Source: Oceanispirochaeta sp.
GTDB lineage: Bacteria; Spirochaetota; Spirochaetia; DSM-2461
DNA length: 64,000 bases
Direction of reading: 5' to 3'
Assembly (NCBI GenBank): GCA_963663385.2
Contig: CAXXXD010000002.1
Span: 1,760,001 to 1,824,000 of the forward strand
The notes beneath the pieces are model-generated. The model saw only the letters and a program-made list of their open reading frames with translations, was not told the DNA's origin and did no database searches. This document shows, piece by piece, positions 33,612-61,700 of this stretch. A program made the translations under genes and the position numbers. Position 1 is the stretch's first letter. Each line of letters starts with the position of its first letter.

Positions 33612-35399
33612 TTATTTAAGAAGGACTTCCACCACATCCGCATCGGGGTAATCCGAACTTAAACCGATGTGGTAGCGGCCGGTCATATCCGTTACGTATT
33701 CTGTAAAATAGAATATTCCTGCCGGTATATTACTTATTTCTTTTTCCTGGGCAGTTGTATAGACATAAGGTTCTGTATAAACCGATCCGGTGGAATCCGT
33801 ATAACTGTACGCGAAGAAATTGAGTGAGTTCAGTTTATAAGGATGACCGTTTAAGGTATACTTAAACCAGCCATCAATGTTAAAACGCATATATTCTTCT
33901 ACATCAGTCCGTTGTGAGAGCAGAACAGCTGCATTGAGGAGCGGTATGGTTATTTCCGCTTTGGCTACACTATTATTTCCAAAACTGAGAGCTGCCGGTA
34001 GATCAGTTGCTCCTGTAGCTTCATGTTGAAGGTTCTGCAGAACTTCCGGTCCCCCGAAATTGCGCATAAGATAAGCGCCATATACATACATAAGAGAATA
34101 ACTAAACAGAGCATAATCCCCGCTGGCCCAGAAATTGAATGGAAAATCAGGCCAGTATATGTATAGGGGGATCCTTCCAGTAGTAATATTGCTGCCGGTG
34201 TTTAAACTTTTTCCATCGATGCCTGTAAAGCCTTTAGGGCCATCTGTATTAAGTTTATCAGGATCCGATAGCAGATCTTCTGTTGCCATGGACAGCAGTT
34301 CGTTAAGCCACGTTTCAGGTTCGTTGCCTCTTATCACAGAAGCCTGATAAAAGTTGATCATATGCTGAAATTCATGGGCCAGGGTGGAGAGGGTATCTTT
34401 AGCATAATAACCTTGATTACTCCATGTATCTCCCGCTTCTGTATAAGCCAGGTAGTTTGCTTCTATATAGAAAACAATCCTTTGGTTTGAAATATCTGTT
34501 TCACTGACAGTCTCATCTGTTTCACTAGTAATTTTGCAATTATCCTTTGCCCAAAAGTAACCAACTACTCCATCTTCCATATCATCATTCATAATATCTG
34601 CAAAAACAATATTAATCTCATCGTAATCACCGATCAGATCATCCGTGTAATTGTGAACTCCCCATTCTTCTCCATAAATATTTGTCACCCAATCGTATAT
34701 ATCATTAAAAGTGCCTTCTGTTAGAAAATTCTCACCAATAAAATCAATCATTTCAGGTGTTATTAAATAATTTTCATTTCCATTTATATGCCAACATGTA
34801 TCTTCAACCCATATTTTTAACGTTTTATCACCAACAGTTGTGATTTTTTGCAGTGTTGATTCATAATCATATCTTTTAATTGAATCTATGTAGCCATCTC
34901 TATTACTATCTACTAATTCTCCATCTTTAAATGTTATTTTTGTTCCTTCAACTTCTGACGAATAAGGGTTTTCTATTGTCTGAGTTCGATTCCAGGATTT
35001 TTCAGTATTGATAACTCTATTTGCAAGTCGGGAATTATTATCCTGTATCCTTTCTATTCTGGAACTGATTTCTGTTTGGTCTGGGAGAAATTTTCTGCTG
35101 TCGAATTCACTCACCTCGATTTCCGGATTTGTTATTGAAGTTGTACCTGAGTTGTAGACCCCAACATAAAGATCTTTGGCATCCGACTGGACTTCGGCAA
35201 ATATATCGTATTCCTTTTCGGCATTGTCCACTATCAGGACGCCGTAGGGAGTTGACTCATCTGTATAGACATATTTTTCAGGAGATTCATCCCATTTCAG
35301 ACCGGATCCGGATGACCCTTCCTTGCAGGAGAGCAGGGTAAGAGCCGTAAGCAGCAGGATTGTGATGAATCTTCCTGTAATGATTCTTTTTTTATTCAT
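33612..35399 (-). CDS. Zinc metallopeptidase lipoprotein (M30/hyicolysin-like)
   Basis: Lipobox LLSC; GYFWAKD, TLAHEFQHMIN (HExxH), WLNELLS. Confidence 0.8.
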   Translation of the reverse strand: MNKKRIITGRFITILLLTALTLLSCKEGSSGSGLKWDESPEKYVYTDESTPYGVLIVDNAEKEYDIFAEVQSDAKDLYVGVYNSGTTSITNPEIEVSEFDSRKFLPDQTEISSRIERIQDNNSRLANRVINTEKSWNRTQTIENPYSSEVEGTKITFKDGELVDSNRDGYIDSIKRYDYESTLQKITTVGDKTLKIWVEDTCWHINGNENYLITPEMIDFIGENFLTEGTFNDIYDWVTNIYGEEWGVHNYTDDLIGDYDEINIVFADIMNDDMEDGVVGYFWAKDNCKITSETDETVSETDISNQRIVFYIEANYLAYTEAGDTWSNQGYYAKDTLSTLAHEFQHMINFYQASVIRGNEPETWLNELLSMATEDLLSDPDKLNTDGPKGFTGIDGKSLNTGSNITTGRIPLYIYWPDFPFNFWASGDYALFSYSLMYVYGAYLMRNFGGPEVLQNLQHEATGATDLPAALSFGNNSVAKAEITIPLLNAAVLLSQRTDVEEYMRFNIDGWFKYTLNGHPYKLNSLNFFAYSYTDSTGSVYTEPYVYTTAQEKEISNIPAGIFYFTEYVTDMTGRYHIGLSSDYPDADVVEVLLK

Positions 35400-35474
35400 T
35401 GTATATATCCTAATGATCAGTGTAGATGTATTCAATCTTATCACTAGGTTTACTGAATAAACACCCTTATTGCA

Positions 35475-36167
35475 TCAAAACTGGAGGGATAATACCCTCC
35501 GTCTGTTATTGGTAAACACCCCGTCCACTCCCATTTCCTGCATGGCAGCAAGTTCTTCGGGCAGGTTAACCGTATAAACGAGAACCTTCAGCCCTCTTGA
35601 ATGGGCATCCTCCACTATCTCCCGGCTGATATTCTCCCTGTTCATGTTAAGAGACCAGGCTCCCATGCCATCCGTCAGGGAGGCCAGTCCCAGAGGCAGG
35701 CTGCCGATAATGGGCGAAACCCGTACTTCAGGTCGCAATTCTTTAAAACGCATCAGTTCAAAGTGATCAAAGGAAGAAACCAGAAAATTCTCCCAACTGC
35801 GTCCTTTGCGGTTAATTTCCTCATCTAGGATATGGGAGACTTTAAGGGCTGATCCGTTTCCTTTAATTTCAATATTCAGGGGGCAGCGGCTGTCAATCAG
35901 ATCAATGATTTCCTGCAGGGTCGGAACCTGTTCTCCTTCGCCTGCATCCAGTGCCCTGATTTCCTTAAAAGTCAGGTTCCTTATGAAACCGCTGCCGTTC
36001 GTCGTGGTATCGACTTTATCATCATGCATGACTACGACTTCACCGGTTTTGCAGATAGCCACATCAATCTCTATCATATCAACGGAATCCTTCAGAGCCT
36101 GTCTGATGGATTTCAGTGTATTCTCAGGAGCCAGCTCCGAGGCGCCCCTGTGTCCGATTATCAGCAT
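35475..36167 (-). CDS. Glycerophosphodiester phosphodiesterase (GlpQ/UgpQ family)
   Basis: IGHRGAS..PENT, IEIDV, VVMHD, NIEIK, YTVN, GVDGVFTN. Confidence 0.93.
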   Translation of the reverse strand: MLIIGHRGASELAPENTLKSIRQALKDSVDMIEIDVAICKTGEVVVMHDDKVDTTTNGSGFIRNLTFKEIRALDAGEGEQVPTLQEIIDLIDSRCPLNIEIKGNGSALKVSHILDEEINRKGRSWENFLVSSFDHFELMRFKELRPEVRVSPIIGSLPLGLASLTDGMGAWSLNMNRENISREIVEDAHSRGLKVLVYTVNLPEELAAMQEMGVDGVFTNNRRRVLSLQF

Positions 36168-36226
36168 TAATATCTCCTATAAAAAGTCAATCATAAGCCT
36201 ATTAACAAGCTTACAATTGAACCGGA

Positions 36227-37339
36227 TTACCCAGTTTTTACGGCATTGAATGCAGCCGCCTGCATCTTCAAGTACTTATCATCCGGAACCATCTTCAACG
36301 GATCAAAGGGTTCACGGGTTTTCAATATGGAGTACACTACCGTACTCATCTTTCTTGCAGAGGCGATAATACTCGTGCCGCTGCCCTTGTTCTTCTTCAT
36401 CGCTCTGTACTTCGTCATGATACGGTAATTGCCAGTCGTTTTCCGAGTTCTAACCATTCCCATAACACACTGAACAAATGCCGTTCTCAGTTCTACAGCC
36501 CCTCTCTTTGTTATATGCCCATGATGAATCGTCTCATTGGAGTTCTGCACCCATGGTACAAGACCGGCATAAGCCGAATACTTCTTGGCACTGGCGTACC
36601 GCTTGATATCATCCGTATAGGCCCTAATAGTCGATGCCGTTATCAATCCGACTCCCGGGATCGTCTGCAATAACTGTACATCCTCATCTTCCTTTACAAG
36701 TTCCAGCAGGACTTTCTCTAACTGCTTGACCTGGTTCGAAACCTGATCTATCGTAGAAAGCAGCGGTTCTATCGCTTTGGCAGCGCTTCCGAAACTCCTA
36801 TGGTCCACGAGACCGATGAGGATGCGCTGCCTTTCTTTTTTACTCTGCAGCGCAGCTCTTTTTGTTTCAATTCCATACCCTAGAAGCAGTCCGTGAACCT
36901 GATTCTTCAAAGATACGACTGATTTAACAAGGATAGTTCTGGATTTAAGAACTCTACGGATATCCTCACTCTCCTGAGAACAAAGCTGTGATTCGGGAAG
37001 CATATCTTTTTCCAAGAACTCTGCTAGAGTTCTGGCATCATGCTTATCCGTCTTTTTCACTGATTCATTTACAACTTTGAATTTCAGTGTATTCACAACC
37101 ACCACCTCAATCCCTGCTAGCAATAGCTTGTTACGGAAGAACCGGGCATTTCCTGTTGATTCCACTGCAGCCCTAACATCAAGGCCCTCTTCTGTATAGG
37201 ACACTGCTTTCTCAAGAAATGCTCTGTAACCGTCCTCAGAGGTCGGATACATTCCTGATTCACAAATGCTTCTATCATCACTCAGGAAACAGACTGTTAA
37301 CTGGGATTTGTGCAGATCCACTCCGATACTCATCTTCAT
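36227..37339 (-). CDS. IS110-family DEDD recombinase/transposase (370 aa)
   Basis: GVDLHK, VESTG, KTDKHDA (DEDD RuvC fold); IPGVG; YAGLVP..QNSNE (putative catalytic Ser); ITKRG. Start at MKMSIG with AGGAG RBS. Confidence 0.95.
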   Translation of the reverse strand: MKMSIGVDLHKSQLTVCFLSDDRSICESGMYPTSEDGYRAFLEKAVSYTEEGLDVRAAVESTGNARFFRNKLLLAGIEVVVVNTLKFKVVNESVKKTDKHDARTLAEFLEKDMLPESQLCSQESEDIRRVLKSRTILVKSVVSLKNQVHGLLLGYGIETKRAALQSKKERQRILIGLVDHRSFGSAAKAIEPLLSTIDQVSNQVKQLEKVLLELVKEDEDVQLLQTIPGVGLITASTIRAYTDDIKRYASAKKYSAYAGLVPWVQNSNETIHHGHITKRGAVELRTAFVQCVMGMVRTRKTTGNYRIMTKYRAMKKNKGSGTSIIASARKMSTVVYSILKTREPFDPLKMVPDDKYLKMQAAAFNAVKTG

Positions 37340-37344
37340 ACCTT

Positions 37345-37535
37345 CGCTCCTATTGCCTAAAACAGCGCCTGTACGGTGAATTGATTCCATTCTCCTATCC
37401 GGTCTCGAAGACCATTGAATGTTTCGGTCACGGCTCTTCATTCTCCTGTACGGTCTCGGAGACCAGTAAAAATGGCGAACAGTAACCTGGCTGTTCTAAA
37501 CGATGTTTAGAACATTGTATCAATCCACAAGCCTA
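37345..37535 (-). ncRNA. Putative bridge/seek RNA in the upstream non-coding end of the IS110
   Basis: 5' hairpin TGTTCTAAAC/GTTTAGAACA (37492-37514), then two homologous stem-loop units (37439-37474, 37388-37421) whose variable parts match target and donor junctions. Ends approximate. Confidence 0.7.
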
Positions 37536-37562
37536 TGAAGACTTTTTATCATTCCTCCTGTG

Positions 37563-38567
37563 CTAAGTTGTTTCACGTATTTTTAAATCTGTTGGCATAA
37601 TCATCTCTACGGGGGGAGAATCGGGATCATCCAGAAGCTGAAGCAGTCTAATGGCAGCCAGCTCTCCCATTTTATCAATATGAATATGAGTCGTTGTCAG
37701 GGGGAGGTAGGACATGGATGCCCAGGGAATATCGTCAAATCCGGCAATCCCCAGCGTGGAAGGTACTTTTATCCCCTCCTGTCTGGCACGATTCAATAAT
37801 CCGATTGCCATGGCATCGTTTACGGCAAATACGGCGGTTCCTTCTGCTATCTCATCTTTTATTTCGTCAAAAATCATTTCGCCTGTCTGAAGGGTTGTAT
37901 CTTCCTTATTTAATATAAACGGGGTAAGCCCCGCTTTTTCCATGGACTCTTTATATCCCTGAATGCGCTCCCTGTTGTTGTACCATTCAACAGGCCCTGT
38001 TATATGGATTATTTTCCTGTAGTTCCGGTTTATCAGATGCTCGGTAATGTTGAAAGCGCCAATACGGTCATCACAGATTACCGTATTGGCACGGGTTTCG
38101 GGCAGTTTGTTTTCAAGGAGTACTACCGGTTTTCCCAGTGCCATGATCTCCATAATAAAGCGCGGGCTGAGGCTCTGCCCGCGCAGGATGAATGCATCGC
38201 AGCTGTCGGACTGAATGGCAGGGATCTTTGACGGGTTATTAAAATCTTCCAGTTCTACCGGGATAACCAGACTCTGGTAGCCTCTTTTGCGGAAGGTTTC
38301 ATCAAAAGCCAGGGTGGAATGATGGAAATAGACGGAATCATACTGTCCCATTCTCTGACGGCCGATTATACCGATAAATCTGCCGGTAGACGGCATGGCT
38401 GTCTGAATGATCGGCGAGAAATCATCTTTATGCTGTTTCAATTCGTTCAGTACAAGATCTCTGGTCTTCTGGCTGATACCGGGTTTATCGTTTAATACCC
38501 TTGAAACTGTGGAAAGGGATATTCCCAGTTTATCTGCAATACTTTTAAGTCTGACTCGCTTATCCAT
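37563..38567 (-). CDS. LacI-family transcriptional regulator
   Basis: HTH LKSIADKLGISLSTVSRVLN; FAVNDAMAIG, AGFDD, PLTT. Confidence 0.95.
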   Translation of the reverse strand: MDKRVRLKSIADKLGISLSTVSRVLNDKPGISQKTRDLVLNELKQHKDDFSPIIQTAMPSTGRFIGIIGRQRMGQYDSVYFHHSTLAFDETFRKRGYQSLVIPVELEDFNNPSKIPAIQSDSCDAFILRGQSLSPRFIMEIMALGKPVVLLENKLPETRANTVICDDRIGAFNITEHLINRNYRKIIHITGPVEWYNNRERIQGYKESMEKAGLTPFILNKEDTTLQTGEMIFDEIKDEIAEGTAVFAVNDAMAIGLLNRARQEGIKVPSTLGIAGFDDIPWASMSYLPLTTTHIHIDKMGELAAIRLLQLLDDPDSPPVEMIMPTDLKIRETT

Positions 38568-38576
38568 ATTTATACC

Positions 38577-38658
38577 TTGACATTTCTCAAATCTAATGTA
38601 AAGTAATCATATACCCAATGCAAATGTATTGCAATAAGTTTCGAACGATTTGCGAAAA
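38577..38658 (+). promoter_or_regulatory. Sigma70-like promoter and candidate LacI operator(s) for the ABC operon
   Basis: TTGACA (38577-82) N16 TAAAGT; palindrome TGCAA-atgta-TTGCA (38619-33); weaker TTTCG-N9-CGAAA. Confidence 0.5.
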
Positions 38659-38670
38659 AAGGAGAAATGT

Positions 38671-40056
38671 ATGAAAAAAATCATTGCAACTCTATTGTTG
38701 GCATTATTGACGCTTCCGATTATGGCGTCCGGATCACAGGAAAACGCCGGCGGACCGGAGACTGTCAAACTGTCAGTCTGGACAAGAGAAGGCGGAATTA
38801 ATCATTGGAGAGCAGATTTGGCTGCAGAGGCAGCCAGGGAACTGAATGCCCAGCTTAAGGCGGAAGGAAGCGAGATTACAGTTGAAGTGGATCCCTATCT
38901 GGATGAGGGAGACTGGGGGAACTTTAAAAAGAAATATTCCCTGGCTGCCGATGCCGGTGAAGCTCCTGCCATTATCTGTTCAGGACATGAGGATATTCCC
39001 GTCTGGAGCCGGGCCGGTTATATTGTTCCGCTGGCAGACTCTGTCAGTGATATGAAAGCGCTGGCTCCCCAGTTTGACGATGTTATCGAAAGTCTGTGGA
39101 ACTCTTCCACCTGGCAGAATAAAGTCTGGGGTGTTCCTCAGGATACGGAAGCCAGACCCATGTATTTCAGTAAAACAAACCTGAAGAAACTGGGATGGGA
39201 TGATGCGCGCATTGCCTCTCTGCCTGCTGATATGGCAGAAGGACGTTTTACCCTTGACGATGTAATTGCCACGGCAAAAGAAGCTGTAGAGAAGGGTGTT
39301 GTTGAACCCGGATACGGTTACTGGCACAGACCCCGCAAGGGCGGAGATTTTGTACAGTTCTATAAAGCATACGGCGGTGACCTTTATGATGCGGCTCAGG
39401 ATAAACTGATTATCGACAGGGATGCTCTTGTCAAATTCTATGATTTCCAGAGACGGACCGTTACCGAAGGAGTTACTCCAGCCAAATACATCGGTACGGA
39501 ATGGAAAATCTGGCACGATGTTGTTTCCAACAATAAAGCCCTTTTCTGGAACGGCGGAACATGGATGTGGGCTGACTGGGCCAAGAATTATGCGGTTGGC
39601 GGAGAGGATACACTCTGGGCGAATGTCGGTTTTGGCTATGAACCCTCCGGGATCAGGGGAGAAAAGGGTGTAACCCTCTCTCATCCTCTTGTCTATCTGG
39701 TATCCAGTAAAGACGCTTCCGGAAACAAGCATCAGGATCTTGCTATTCGTCTGATTGCCCTGATGTCTGAAACAGAGCGGAATACCCGTCATGCTGTTGA
39801 AAGCGGACACCTGGGAATCCTGAAATCCCAGAATGATTTTGCAGACTATAAAGAGAGCAAATTCCTGGCCGATGTCACGTATCTGCTGGATAATAATTTC
39901 TATCAGCCCAACCATGTAATGTACGGACTGTGGTTTGATGCTTTCTGGGATGGAATGGTAGCGGCGGAACAGGGAGATAAAACACCTGAAGAAGCAGCAG
40001 ATGATACTATAAAGGTTATGAAAGTGGAAATTGATGATCAACTGATCATCCGCTGA
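38671..40056 (+). CDS. Sugar/sugar-phosphate ABC transporter solute-binding protein
   Basis: Signal peptide ..IMASGSQE; VWGVPQDTEARPMYF; AGGAG RBS. Confidence 0.9.
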   Translation: MKKIIATLLLALLTLPIMASGSQENAGGPETVKLSVWTREGGINHWRADLAAEAARELNAQLKAEGSEITVEVDPYLDEGDWGNFKKKYSLAADAGEAPAIICSGHEDIPVWSRAGYIVPLADSVSDMKALAPQFDDVIESLWNSSTWQNKVWGVPQDTEARPMYFSKTNLKKLGWDDARIASLPADMAEGRFTLDDVIATAKEAVEKGVVEPGYGYWHRPRKGGDFVQFYKAYGGDLYDAAQDKLIIDRDALVKFYDFQRRTVTEGVTPAKYIGTEWKIWHDVVSNNKALFWNGGTWMWADWAKNYAVGGEDTLWANVGFGYEPSGIRGEKGVTLSHPLVYLVSSKDASGNKHQDLAIRLIALMSETERNTRHAVESGHLGILKSQNDFADYKESKFLADVTYLLDNNFYQPNHVMYGLWFDAFWDGMVAAEQGDKTPEEAADDTIKVMKVEIDDQLIIR

Positions 40057-57789: not shown

Positions 57790-58740
57790 TTATTCTGCGT
57801 TTCTAACTAGGCGGATTCCTGTAGAAAAAATATTCATTGGTCTATAAGTTCCCCTTATAGAGGTTTCAATAGGACCTCCATACCATGATCCACCTCTTAT
57901 TACTTTAAAATCATGACCGTATCTTGATTTCTGTTTTACATCTTCAGCATGATCAATTGATGGATTTTCTATTGGTAGCCATTCAAACATTATTTCATCA
58001 TACCAATCCCAGCACCACTCACTTGCATTTCCACCCATATCATAAATATCTAATTCATTAGGTATATACTCTCCTACAGGATAAGAGCTTTTAAACTCTT
58101 TACCGAAACGTGCAATTTCATTGGGATCATCACTGCCAGGATATTTAAATCCTTTAGATTGGCGTCCACCTCGTGCTGCATATTCCCATTCGGCATCGGT
58201 AGGTAATCTATAACCATTTGCGGTTTTGTCCCATTTGACAGATATTTCGGTAAATTCTTCATCAGGTAGCTCAGTGATTATATAAGCTGGATTAAATCCA
58301 TCCTTTAAGCTTGCCCAATTGCAAAAAATTATGGCATAGTACCAATTCAATCCTTGAGCTGGACAGTCATCAGTTGGAATAGTTTCATAAAAAGGCCCAT
58401 ATCCATCTATATTCCAATCCCATGTAAATTTAAGCTTTACATCATTTAAAAAAAGTTTCCATTCATCAACAGTAACCATATAGGAAGACATAAAAAATGA
58501 AGAAAGATCTACTCTATGGGGCTGATTGGTTTTTATATCAGGATTTCCCATAATAAATTCGCCGCCATCAACGAGTACCATTTCAGGTTGATAATACCCT
58601 TCTGAAATATTAAAAAGAGGTGTAGTTGTAGTTTCAGATTCGATCACAGGTTCAGGCTCTTTTTTTTTATCTTCACTCTTTTGGCAAGAAAATGTACAAA
58701 TAAATAACAGTACTATAAATACATTCTTAAATATTTTCAT
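57790..58740 (-). CDS. FGE-sulfatase/SUMF1-fold lipoprotein
   Basis: Lipobox TFSC; MVLVDGGEFIMG, YRLPTDAEWEYAARGG, PNELDIYDMGGNASEWCWDWY, RGGSW, GIRLVR; starts 10 nt after the giant ORF stop. Confidence 0.9.
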   Translation of the reverse strand: MKIFKNVFIVLLFICTFSCQKSEDKKKEPEPVIESETTTTPLFNISEGYYQPEMVLVDGGEFIMGNPDIKTNQPHRVDLSSFFMSSYMVTVDEWKLFLNDVKLKFTWDWNIDGYGPFYETIPTDDCPAQGLNWYYAIIFCNWASLKDGFNPAYIITELPDEEFTEISVKWDKTANGYRLPTDAEWEYAARGGRQSKGFKYPGSDDPNEIARFGKEFKSSYPVGEYIPNELDIYDMGGNASEWCWDWYDEIMFEWLPIENPSIDHAEDVKQKSRYGHDFKVIRGGSWYGGPIETSIRGTYRPMNIFSTGIRLVRNAE

Positions 58741-58750
58741 TTTGATTCCC

Positions 58751-61700
58751 TCAGAATTTAGGTTTAAAACTATAATAATTCGAGTTAAATGCAGCAGCAT
58801 TTTCCCACCACTTATATTCTTGATATGTTGTATATGGATCATCATAGACACCATTAGACCAACTTGCAAAATGAGTATGTTCAGAATCATTCACATCAAT
58901 ATACTTCTCCATATATGAATTAATATCCGCGTTTTGAAGTGCTTCATAGCTTTCATACGTTGTTTCAAATAAAGGATAATTATCAATGCCAAGCTTATCA
59001 CCAATCATAGCATTCAGACCGTTATAGGAAAGAACTTCACTATCATTATTAAACATTTCTCCCTGAGCATTTCGAAGTACATCTATCAGCTCATCAGGCC
59101 CTAGACTTACACCATATTTTTCCTGAAAGTAATTATTCGCATATTCAGCAGAAGCTGTAATTGCACAAGCACTGTGTTCATCCAGGCCTAATGCTTCTTC
59201 TACCATTTCCTGAGAGATATCTGTTTCGCTGTTCCGACCGAGATTATCCAGATAACTGTAGTTTCCGTTTCTTATGGCTAGATAGATCGGATCATATCCA
59301 GAACCATGATATTTTGCAATTTCTGTCTCAGAATACCAACCGCCTTTATCTTTATTATAATCAAGTCCAGACTTCATCATGATACTGTTGATATCCGATT
59401 TTGATTGCTTGTCATTACCAGTCTGAAAACCAGCGGTAATCGCCGCAATCTGACCTGACAGCGATCCATTAGCTCTTCTAATAGTCTGGGTTTCACCATT
59501 TTCATCCACAAAGATTAAGGTTTGCTTATCTCCATCATCAAGGACTTGCTGAACTTTTCCGTTTTCATCCAGTACAACACGCCAGTAGTCGGCACTTGAA
59601 TCATAAGCCCCATCCACATAGTTATTCCCGCCGGTTTTATAGGATACATAATCTTTCAGAAGCTCATCATTTCCATTAAAAATAGCGCTCCCATAATCAC
59701 CCATCAGCTTATCCAGAGTTGTGATATGCCCCTTCACAGCCTGCCGGGTTTCCATTTTCTGAGAATAATCACTGCTGATGTCTCCATCTCTGTGCGCTTC
59801 GTGGTTTAAAGTAACAAGCGTATCTACAACACTGGCCATATCATTCATATTAACGCCATTATTCAAAAATACAACCCTGTTCCCGTTTTCCAGTACGGTT
59901 TCTGCCTTTCCATCCACATCCTGATCAAATCTCAGCTCCGTATCCAGATGCATCATACTGGCAGCCTGTCTCTTGGCGGCAATATTGCCGTAGGCCCTCT
60001 GCATACGGTTCAATCTGGCCATATCTTCTGCAGTCTGTTTATCCGCAGCATATTTGTTCACGTTATCCGTAAAGGCTTCCACATTTTTCTGAATGCTTCG
60101 CTCGGAACCCAATACATACATTCCCTCCACAAAAGAGGCAAAGGTAGAGTAATCGGCTTTGATACCGCCGCTCCCTATTCTGGATGATAGCCCGTTATTT
60201 CCCAGATTGAGCTCCAAAAGTCCGCCATGATAAGCCGCATTATCAGAGTTTTTCAATCCGAACATGGAAAAGTCCAGAACATTGACAGTGGTATTCCCCG
60301 TCATGGCGTATTCGGTCAGCCCTCTGGTTACGGAACCGGCCATATTGCCGATGGCTCCCACATTGTAGGCCATACTCCCCCAGCCGCTGTCTTTTAGTGC
60401 TGTCTGATTTTTCATGGTGAAAGCATTACCTAATACTCCTGTCTGAAAGCTGGTTCTTGCGAAGTGTTCTGCCGTTCCAGCAATAACACCAGTCCAGGCA
60501 TCGGTTCCCTCAAAGCTTTTGCAGAAACCCTTCTGATTGAAATCCAGACCATTATCCCACTCAATGGCATTTATCCCGTTTGAAACAGCCATATTTGCTG
60601 TCAATTCAACGGCTTTCAGCCCTGTTGAGGCAAAAACTGAATTCTGGATAAACGGGTTATTCTGAAGCCCCTTGAACTCACCTCCGAAACCGGTATTAAA
60701 CGAGCTTCCAATGACCGAAGTCGCCAGGCTTGTTGCGCCTTTCCTGGCAAAACCGCTCCAGGCATCTCCAGCTTCCATCTGTCCGTTCTGTACATCAAGA
60801 GCCGTAAACAGCGCATCATCCACCATATTGGCCGCTGTGGACATCAACGCTGCAGCCAGAACATTCCCGGCCCCGGGAGCCATAGCCGTAAAGGCAATAT
60901 TTAACGCTATATCCGTCAAACTTCTGATAGTCGGAGCTGCCAGAAGGCTGTCGGAACTCCCGTCATTATCCGCATCATCATCCCATATTTTCTGGCTGTA
61001 GGCGGGCAGGTCCACCGTGGCAAATCCCCTCTGCATCCGGGCCTGCTGAATCAGGTAGTCTTTATAGATACGGCCCATCTCGCCGTAACCTTCGGTCTCC
61101 ACATCTTCCGGATCATCTTCTTCCATCTCCGGAGCATAACCCACATGGAAGTAAAACAGACCGGAAGTTGTTGTATGCTTTCCTGTCTCCTGCCAAATAT
61201 CATTCTCATCATAATACCCTGTATTGTATTGGGCAGAGTTTTCAAAAGCTTCTTGCTGCGCTTCCAGATGAGCCAGAAACTCATTGTCCAGGCCGTCGGT
61301 TTCCGCTTCATCCTGGCCGAAGACCAGACCAATATAATTTTCCAGATTTTCCTGAGCCTTTTTCACCTTCACATTGATCAATGTGCTGTTCAGTTTTTCC
61401 AGGCTTGCCTGGGACAGATCCACGCCGTGGTCAAAATCGGGGGCGATAAAGTCGTTGTAGACCCCTACCTCCTGGGTTTCCGACTCCGGGCCTCCCATCA
61501 GGGACGAATCGATAATGGTCCGTCTGGTATAGGTGTCGCCGTACCGGACGTAACCGGCATTATTCATGGTATTGGTCACGCTGTCGTCCACGCCCTTGTT
61601 GGCATCGTCAATGCTGTCGTCGATACCTTCTTCCATCTCGTCAATCAGCTCCGCCATCTGGAGGGCCTGAGCCGTAGCGAGGGCCTTCTGCAGGTCCTCT

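Follow-up and report, generated by a model that had tools for sequence, protein, structure and literature searches.

How does an insertion sequence (IS) come to lie exactly within the Shine-Dalgarno (SD) sequence of a gene and still leave that gene with a complete ribosome-binding site (RBS)? The question is raised by a 64,000-nt stretch of DNA from Oceanispirochaeta sp. (positions 1,760,001 to 1,824,000 of contig CAXXXD010000002.1; hereafter, the window), in which an IS110-family element of 1,381 bp separates a LacI-family gene from a GDPD (glpQ-like) gene, on the minus strand, with AGGAG on both sides. We think that this is an active RNA-guided element of the IS110 family in the broad sense, and that a two-loop bridge (or seek) RNA encoded in its left end targets the region from the SD to the ATG. 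We put the probability of this reading at roughly 0.8. All positions below are window coordinates, and features are read on the minus strand.

The element occupies 1,376 nt (36179-37554) between the two copies of AGGAG. To its left, the LacI-family open reading frame (ORF; 37563-38567, with Pfam matches to LacI, Peripla_BP_1, and Peripla_BP_3) ends with the stop codon TAG at 37563-37565, followed by CAC and then by AGGAG at 37555-37559. This left half of the target (37555-37562), which consists of CAC-AGG and a core AG (37555-37556), is the original SD. To the right, a second AGGAG (36174-36178) is followed by ATATTA (36168-36173) and by the ATG (36165-36167) of the GDPD-family ORF (35475-36167; Pfam GDPD from residue 6, E = 9.4e-44), whose RBS is the target. 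The AGG of this second copy (36176-36178) is the terminal part of the element; together with the core AG (36174-36175), the spacer, and the start codon (36165-36175 in all), it makes AGGAG-N6-ATG. A preliminary description of this DNA had claimed that taking out the element and one AGGAG would give TAG-cac-AGGAG-atatta-ATG, with a spacer of 14 nt, and this is exactly what the sequence gives. It had also claimed that glpQ retains AGGAG-N6-ATG after the insertion, and this is correct as well: the SD is regenerated by the AGG at the right tip of the element. Furthermore, in three genomes of the same genus, lacI and glpQ are directly adjacent (65-74% DNA identity), and at each of these empty orthologous sites the lacI stop is followed by a short spacer and (C)AGGAG, with the glpQ ATG another 6-8 nt on. 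Albeit from other species, the empty sites agree in kind with the reconstructed allele.

The genome (5.3 Mb in 4 contigs, 46.5% G+C) has 10 copies of the element, of which 8 are identical and 2 have one mismatch. Every copy has AGGAG on its left, AGGAG-N6-8-ATG on its right, the core AG (CT on the opposite strand) at both junctions, and a recombinase gene that is co-oriented with the downstream gene. The left flank is ACAGGAG for 8 of the 10 copies (preceded by T in 6 of these 8) and AAAGGAG or GCAGGAG for the other two. The downstream ORFs encode 98-689 amino acids, and each has a Pfam domain (MCP, H+-pyrophosphatase, malonate decarboxylase ACP, URO-D, DUF6588, GNAT, Zn-ADH, GFO/IDH/MocA oxidoreductase, alpha/beta hydrolase, or GDPD). 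ACAGGAG by itself is not rare: the genome has 1,462 occurrences, of which just 120 are RBS-like (another 56 are if GTG or TTG is accepted). By RBS-like, we mean that a start codon after ACAGGAG opens an ORF of at least 60 amino acids.

The preliminary description had also stated that such a site never breaks an ORF. This is nearly right. At 6 of the 10 sites, the upstream side has a co-oriented open frame whose end is 0-70 nt away. At two sites (C3 at 65100 and C1 at 363212), the upstream frame reaches the junction, so that the last 0-1 codons and the natural stop were lost, and the element supplies GAA-TGA instead; these two upstream ORFs had overlapped the SD. (The first bases of the element in the window, 37549-37554, likewise spell GAA-TGA in one frame.) Two of the copies lie 5.3 kb apart on contig C3 in opposite orientation, at 58413-59788 (minus strand) and 65100-66475 (plus strand), with their left ends face-to-face. 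A bridge recombinase could invert the segment between them.

Beyond this genome, a scan of species-representative genomes identified 76 related loci. In one Spirochaetia genome there are 15 copies (79% protein identity), and in Marispirochaeta there are many; genomes with the labels Desulfobacterales, Treponema, Leptospira, Dysgonamonadaceae, Dehalococcoidales, and candidate phyla have single copies. AGGAG ends the left flank in 42 of 46 relatives (52 of 56 left junctions across the family) and forms the right junction in 52 of 53 cases, our own copies included. A right tip was recognisable at 50 loci, of which 7 are cut by the end of a contig and 43 could be scored; in 38 of the 43, a start codon 3-14 nt downstream opens an ORF that is at least 50 amino acids long or that runs off the locus. 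All 38 start codons are ATG, and the spacer is 6 nt (23 loci), 5 nt (7), 7 nt (4), or of another length (4). The five loci without such an ORF are L028, L034, L060, L061, and L066. The preliminary description had proposed that the flanks of other copies and of relatives would tell whether the site is general, and these counts (10/10, 42/46, and 38/43) are in its favor. The right tip TTGAC-TTTTTAT-AGG recurs in relatives, and the terminal AGG is found in essentially all of them. At one locus, L039, the right tip is partly duplicated: about 17 nt of right-end sequence separate one ...TTTTTATAGGAG from a second TTTTTATAGGAG that comes before the host's ATG. This is as expected if the right junction itself had been used as a target, or if the event had been imprecise.

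A more distant group from Lentisphaeria (L072-L085, CP091727.1) has only 33% protein identity to our recombinase, with 9 intact copies in one genome and two more in that genome that are truncated at the left. Its sites read (A/G)AAGGAG before the IS and ...TCATAGGAG-N5-8-ATG after it. The ends of the element are different, ATGGTATGATAAATAG ... TTTTATCATAGGAG, and the RNA strands are GGAAAGGAG and GUAUAGGAG.

Could AGGAG be a 5-bp target-site duplication of the ordinary kind, left by a protein-guided transposase that loosely prefers purine-rich sites, with RNA-like hairpins nearby that are incidental? There is indeed a 5-bp direct repeat on both sides of the element. But this repeat is no arbitrary duplicated sequence: it is AGGAG at 10 of 10 sites in the genome, at 52 of 56 left junctions, and at 52 of 53 right junctions, and its AGG belongs to the conserved right tip. 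The recombinase is a DEDD/Ser enzyme of the IS110 family. Also, both loops of the RNA covary with the flank and with the ends of the element, as described below, and this covariation already contradicts a duplication. We consider this explanation to be extremely improbable.

Instead, we think that the site is read by an RNA from the left end. The left end (37340-37554) has 215 nt and the right end 51 nt (36176-36226), so the long non-coding region is 5' of the recombinase gene. The predicted RNA would begin near 37536 and have a length of about 165 nt. The minimum free energy (MFE) of the left end is -68.8 kcal/mol, as compared to -51.6 ± 4.7 for shuffled sequences (z = -3.68). A consensus fold of 29 relatives has 26 pairs, of which 11 show compensatory changes, and consists of a long-range closing stem, an 11-bp stem around the first loop, and two inner hairpins. 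(The MFE fold of the single sequence pairs the two loops with each other; we set it aside and relied on the consensus fold for the anatomy of the RNA.) A scan of 35000-39000 against Rfam, with E up to 1, gave no match, which means that this RNA falls outside the curated families.

The first loop reads 5' C-CAU-UUUUA-CU [hairpin] G-UACAGG-AG-AAUG and the second reads 5' A-CAUUC-AAU [hairpin] GGAUAGG-AG-AAUGG. We call these the target loop and the donor loop. The 5' side of the target loop (37465-37475) is complementary to AG-TAAAA-ATG-G on the coding strand. Its inner hairpin, GGUCUC-C-GAGACC (37452-37464), is supported by the pairs 112/136 and 114/134, which are compensated in 5 and 7 sequences. 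Its 3' side, G-UACAGG-AG (37439-37451, including the AAUG that follows), is the same as the left flank and the core. The two RNA strings that the preliminary description had quoted, GCCAUUUUUAC (37466-37476) and GUACAGGAG (37443-37451), are both present, one on either side of this 13-nt hairpin. In the donor loop, the 5' side (37414-37422) contains CAUUC, which pairs with the GAATG at the very start of the element. It is followed by the inner hairpin of the consensus fold (37401-37413) and by the 3' side, GGAUAGG-AG (37392-37400, part of 37387-37413), which is the same as the element's right tip and the core and is followed by AAUGG.

Guidance by this RNA is backed by covariation. Across the family, the 3' strand of the target loop agrees with the left flank in 0.95 of cases at position -6, 0.78 at -7, and 0.27 at -8. 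The mean agreement of the SD-side guide with the left flank is 2.00 of 3 positions, as compared to 1.25 for permuted pairings, and none of 20,000 permutations reached the observed value. Because the guide and the flank covary, we conclude that the SD half of the target is set by the RNA. The donor guide is perfectly complementary to the left tip in 23 of 29 relatives, or in 26 of 29 if wobble pairs are allowed (permutation P = 0.0002), and this covariation spans seven types of left end (GAATG, GCACG, GCATG, GTATG, and three rarer ones). AUAGGAG in the donor loop equals the right tip plus the core in all 29 aligned RNAs. To judge from these alignments, AGGAG is a fixed part of both loops throughout the family, and, given the conserved structure and the covariation of both loops, the left end evidently encodes a two-loop bridge RNA.

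We considered two other roles for sequences near the left tip, and neither held up. The AAUG that follows AGGAG in the target loop might have been a guide for the left tip, but it stays the same when the tip changes from GAATG to GCACG or GTATG, so nothing besides its position suggests such a role. Similarly, at the left junction there is a mini-ORF of 10 codons (AGGAG-GA-ATG...), but its spacing is too short and its ATG is not kept in relatives with GCACG-type ends.

Does the 5' strand of the target loop read the spacer and the ATG? Of the 29 RNAs in the alignment, 28 have the CAU. The downstream start codon is ATG at 48 of 48 sites, as compared to 80% of the 1,073 AGGAG RBSs in this genome; the chance of this is 0.8^48, or about 2e-5, with the caution that most of the sites lie in other genomes. 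The five nucleotides before the ATG match the TAAAA that is predicted from the guide at 3.2 of 5 positions for occupied sites, versus 1.69 of 5 at 855 background RBSs with ATG (P = 3.8e-5), and the spacers of occupied sites are richer in A+T than those of ordinary AGGAG RBSs (0.89 versus 0.68, P = 4.5e-4). Finally, if the five variable bases of the guide are aligned relative to the ATG, then across 17 types of guide the fit is 2.51, versus 1.92 when permuted (P = 0.00055). Aligning these bases instead with the first five bases of the spacer, as anchored by the core, gives 2.07, versus 1.85 for cross pairings. This is too weak, and we prefer the register that is anchored at the ATG.

The observations that weigh against our reading mostly fall on this half of the target, with a few more on the host's side of the insertion and in the sequencing runs. 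Anchored at the core, the guide predicts a spacer of 5 nt, and the spacer is 6 nt at 28 of 48 sites and 5 nt at just 7 of 48. (In the background of this genome, 0.15 of the spacings are 5 nt, 0.27 are 6 nt, 0.19 are 7 nt, and 0.17 are 8 nt.) Base for base, the spacer fits the guide poorly (on average, 3.9 of 7 positions when anchored at the core), and the base opposite the second position of the core differs among relatives. In the consensus fold, an invariant UG is the pairing partner of the CA in this conserved triplet, and the CAU may therefore be kept for structural reasons. Also, the backgrounds for ATG usage and for spacing come from this genome only, and most of the sites come from other genomes.

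These observations suggest an alternative in which the RNA reads only the SD half, NN-AGG-AG. The restriction to start sites, the A-rich spacer, and the ATG would then result from purifying selection against insertions at other sites and from the composition that strong RBSs generally have, and the CAU would be structural. The poor match of the spacer, the register that is one off from the modal spacing, and the invariant CA:UG pairs all fit with this alternative, and so does the spacing at this genome's own sites, which is 6, 7, or 8 nt and resembles the background. On the other hand, about 88% of the ACAGGAG sites in the genome are not RBS-like, yet none of the 10 copies is at such a site. 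It is also not obvious under this alternative why occupied spacers should be closer to the guide and richer in A+T than those of ordinary AGGAG RBSs, why there should be covariation across 17 guide types in the ATG-anchored register, or why all 48 starts should be ATG. We think that reading of the SD alone is rather unlikely. We lean towards a 5' strand that provides loose, A/U-rich, and probably ATG-anchored recognition, although the offset of one base stays unexplained. With the register off by one, it is likely but not proven that the guide "spells ATG." So the claim that the element is RNA-programmed for translation-initiation regions stands for the SD half, given the 10 copies, the family, and the covariation, and stands in part for the ATG half. 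In any case, this family is a natural test of how much mismatch and slippage of register one guide strand tolerates.

The protein is what would be expected for an RNA-guided recombinase. The gene (36227-37339) encodes 370 amino acids and has its own SD, AGGAG-N7-ATG. The protein matches DEDD_Tnp_IS110 (PF01548, E = 1.1e-20) and Transposase_20 (PF02371, E = 5.2e-19) in Pfam as well as the NCBIfam model NF033542, "IS110 family RNA-guided transposase" (228 bits, with a cut-off of 140). In phmmer, it aligns to IS621 (chain 8wt6_A, E = 9.2e-16), and the IS621 residues E60, D102, D105, and S241 are matched, with AVESTG aligned to IEATG, KTDKHDA to KTDTVDA, and GLVPWVQNS to GLTPRRYES. The first Asp (D11 in IS621) lies beyond the printed alignment and is probably present as well, as the Pfam match begins at position 1 of the profile. 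The C-terminal motif, GLVPWVQNSN, can be compared to the GL-P----S(t)G that is quoted for IS1111 (Siddiquee 2024). By its domains and its catalytic residues, this is a member of the IS110 family in the broad sense.

Which kind of IS110 element is it? In the passages that describe IS621 (Durrant 2024, Hiraizumi 2024), a CT core is covered by both guides and the left junction is LT-RD. Relative to those passages, our element is similar in having a DEDD/Ser recombinase; a guide RNA in the left end, 5' of the gene; two internal loops that each enclose a hairpin, one for the target and one for the joined ends; a 2-nt core that is CT on one strand and is covered by both guides; and an expected promoter across the circle junction. 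Also, the bases after the core-binding AG of the 3' strands sit where the handshake guides do in IS621. The long non-coding region upstream of the recombinase gene is shared with the IS110-type elements IS621 and ISEc21.

Unlike in IS621, the order of the guide strands is reversed. In our element, each 5' strand is complementary to the coding (top) strand and each 3' strand to the bottom strand, whereas the order described for the IS110-type (IS621 and ISEc21) has the bottom-strand match 5' of the top-strand match. If rotated by 180 degrees, our element has the geometry of IS621 with a CT core, but the genes for the recombinase and the RNA are then on the other strand. Other differences from the described IS621 are the perfect 10-bp subterminal inverted repeats (IS110-type elements have none or 2-3 bp); the AGG beyond the core that is shared by target and donor, a trait that is absent from the IS621 sequences that are quoted; a natural target in the SD-ATG region rather than in a REP-type repeat; and a 5'-strand guide that tolerates many mismatches. 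The inverted repeats of our element are ATAAAAAGTC on the left (37540-37549) and GACTTTTTAT on the right (36179-36188), and they are kept in relatives; GATAAAAA of the left repeat region is kept across the alignment of the family.

In several of these respects, the element resembles the IS1111-type. A reversed strand order is described for the seekRNAs of the IS1111-type elements ISEc11, ISKpn4, and ISPa11 (Siddiquee 2024), with the top-strand match 5' of the bottom-strand match, as here. According to the same description, IS1111-type elements also have subterminal inverted repeats with a 7-bp left extension, which our element shares if the core is counted (AG + GAATG), and strict specificity for site and orientation without duplication. 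But the non-coding region is upstream of the gene in our element and almost always downstream in the IS1111-type, with rare exceptions such as ISMtsp17 (Siddiquee 2024). Because the ends and the order of the guides are like IS1111 while the position of the RNA is like IS110, we assign the element to IS110 in the broad sense and to neither subgroup. The mixed architecture bears on how the two groups diverged.

The preliminary description was not aware of any earlier report of such targeting. In fact, reports from 1997 and 2003 (Doran 1997 and Inglis 2003, as cited in PMC2942039) have IS900 and IS901 of Mycobacterium avium inserting between the SD and the start codon. Like our element, they belong to the IS110 family and insert in one orientation, and the IS900 motif CATGNNNNNNTCTCCTT (PMC8141618) is the reverse complement of SD-N-ATG. 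Unlike in our element, the transposase of IS900 is antisense to the host gene, and the complementary strand has an ORF, hed (PMC8141618), that uses the host's signals; in all 10 copies of our element, the recombinase gene and the host gene point the same way, and a hed-type ORF is unneeded. The passages on IS900 and IS901 give no explanation of the target in terms of RNA. We found no literature that links bridge or seek RNAs to SD targeting; our search covered text rather than the supplementary target tables of the 2024 papers and of a 2026 preprint. Nor did that search find an explanation at the RNA level, co-orientation with the host gene, or the mixed IS1111/IS110 architecture.

So the class of element and the class of target were already known, and the link through RNA, the invariant AGGAG in both loops, the AGG that is carried by the IS, the co-orientation, and the mixed architecture appear to be new. 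This would connect the bridge/seek-RNA mechanism of 2024 to the 1997 finding that some IS110-family elements choose the stretch from the SD to the ATG as their landing site. The clade with the invariant AGGAG in both loops is widespread, in genomes labelled Spirochaetia, Desulfobacterales, Lentisphaeria, Treponema, Leptospira, and candidate phyla. And its guide would be a natural example of one that is aimed at a generic functional signal, with about a thousand instances per genome, rather than at a repeat.

How would insertion proceed? We infer the geometry of pairing by analogy with the RNAs of IS621 and of the IS1111-type. The 3' strand of the target loop would read NN-AGG-AG, that is, two variable bases, the core of the SD, and the 2-nt crossover core, which reads AG on the coding strand and, like the core of IS621, CT on the opposite one. 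The 5' strand (CAU-N5-NU) would lie over the A-rich spacer and probably over the ATG. The donor loop would read the joined ends of the circle: the right tip, ending in TTTTTATAGG, then the core AG, and then the left tip GAATG. Recombination at the core would insert the element after the SD and ahead of the spacer, and the element would always point the same way as the host gene. The original SD would be retained at the left junction, and because the element's right tip ends in AGG, the downstream gene would regain AGGAG-N-ATG. Transcription from the host would run into the genes for the RNA and the recombinase, and since the inserted element would always be sense within a transcribed leader or operon, read-through could supply both, as was reported for IS621. 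In the circle, the junction would rebuild a promoter from the TTGACT at 36185-36190 in the right end and the -10-like TAAAAA at 37543-37548, within the left inverted repeat, with 17 nt between them (9 + 2 + 6). A junction promoter is known from IS621 and ISEc21, according to the passages that describe them.

It is less clear that insertion would be harmless to the host. In the right end (36176-36226) of this copy, a hairpin of 15 pairs at 36187-36220 is directly followed by CUUUUUAU. It lies immediately ahead of the rebuilt SD and shares bases with the -35-like TTGAC. Right-end hairpins with differing stem sequences are present in most of the 15 relatives that we folded, and a hairpin with CUUUUUAU is found in L011, L025, L033, L036, L037, L042, L044, L048, and others. 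The hairpin with CUUUUUAU looks like an intrinsic terminator. If it stops transcription, then the downstream gene may be silenced despite its SD. With a possible terminator ahead of the rebuilt SD, the insertion may not be harmless, and the cost to the host becomes a question of its own.

The AGG on the right tip may have been selected because it spares the host's translation. Another reading is that it eases excision: since the right tip, ATAGG, mimics the SD half of the target, NNAGG, each junction is a near-full match for one whole loop of the RNA. In the passages on IS621, excision is much less efficient than insertion, and the half-mismatched junctions are given as the cause (Durrant 2024, Hiraizumi 2024). 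These two readings are mutually compatible, and we do not choose between them. It is conceivable, but we are doubtful, that the family is a precisely reversible RNA-guided cassette whose excision is as easy as its insertion, and which acts as an on/off switch at start sites, with the 5' guide reading the start codon. If so, then the cassette, with its conserved hairpin and U-tract ahead of the rebuilt SD, would uncouple a gene from its promoter and leave the translation signals intact.

Sequencing runs give some further information about the element. In the contigs from four public runs, the assemblies break at the repeat: the element is a single contig of 1,386-1,389 nt that ends exactly at both AGGAGs. 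In run X2, this contig has about 9 times the depth of its flanks. Loose ends lead into other RBS flanks. Neither a joint across the element nor a circle junction is present in the contigs of these four runs, and no RNA run with the element is listed among the sequencing runs. As to the empty allele that the preliminary description had reconstructed, the three other genomes of the genus match it in kind, as described above, and the contigs of the four runs contain no empty site from the same species. A contig from run X6, which has a different organism label, has the same insertion. It differs from the window at 27 of 603 bases on the glpQ side (35600-36202) and at 1 of 569 bases on the lacI side (37532-38100), so the divergence is mosaic across the element.

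Two smaller observations come from the copy in the window. Between 36000 and 37800, all 8 promoter-like matches are on the plus strand, antisense to the element, while shuffled sequences lead to an expectation of 3.2 ± 1.7; one of the 8, at 37524-37552, is directed out of the left end toward lacI. And the recombinase gene's own RBS (37337-37353, minus strand) is ATAGGAG-N7-ATG, which departs from the ACAGGAG of the target guide at -6, the most discriminating position. In the relative with 79% identity, the guide reads UUUAGGAG and the RBS of the recombinase is TTGGAG. An RBS that departs from the element's own guide may reflect avoidance of self-insertion.

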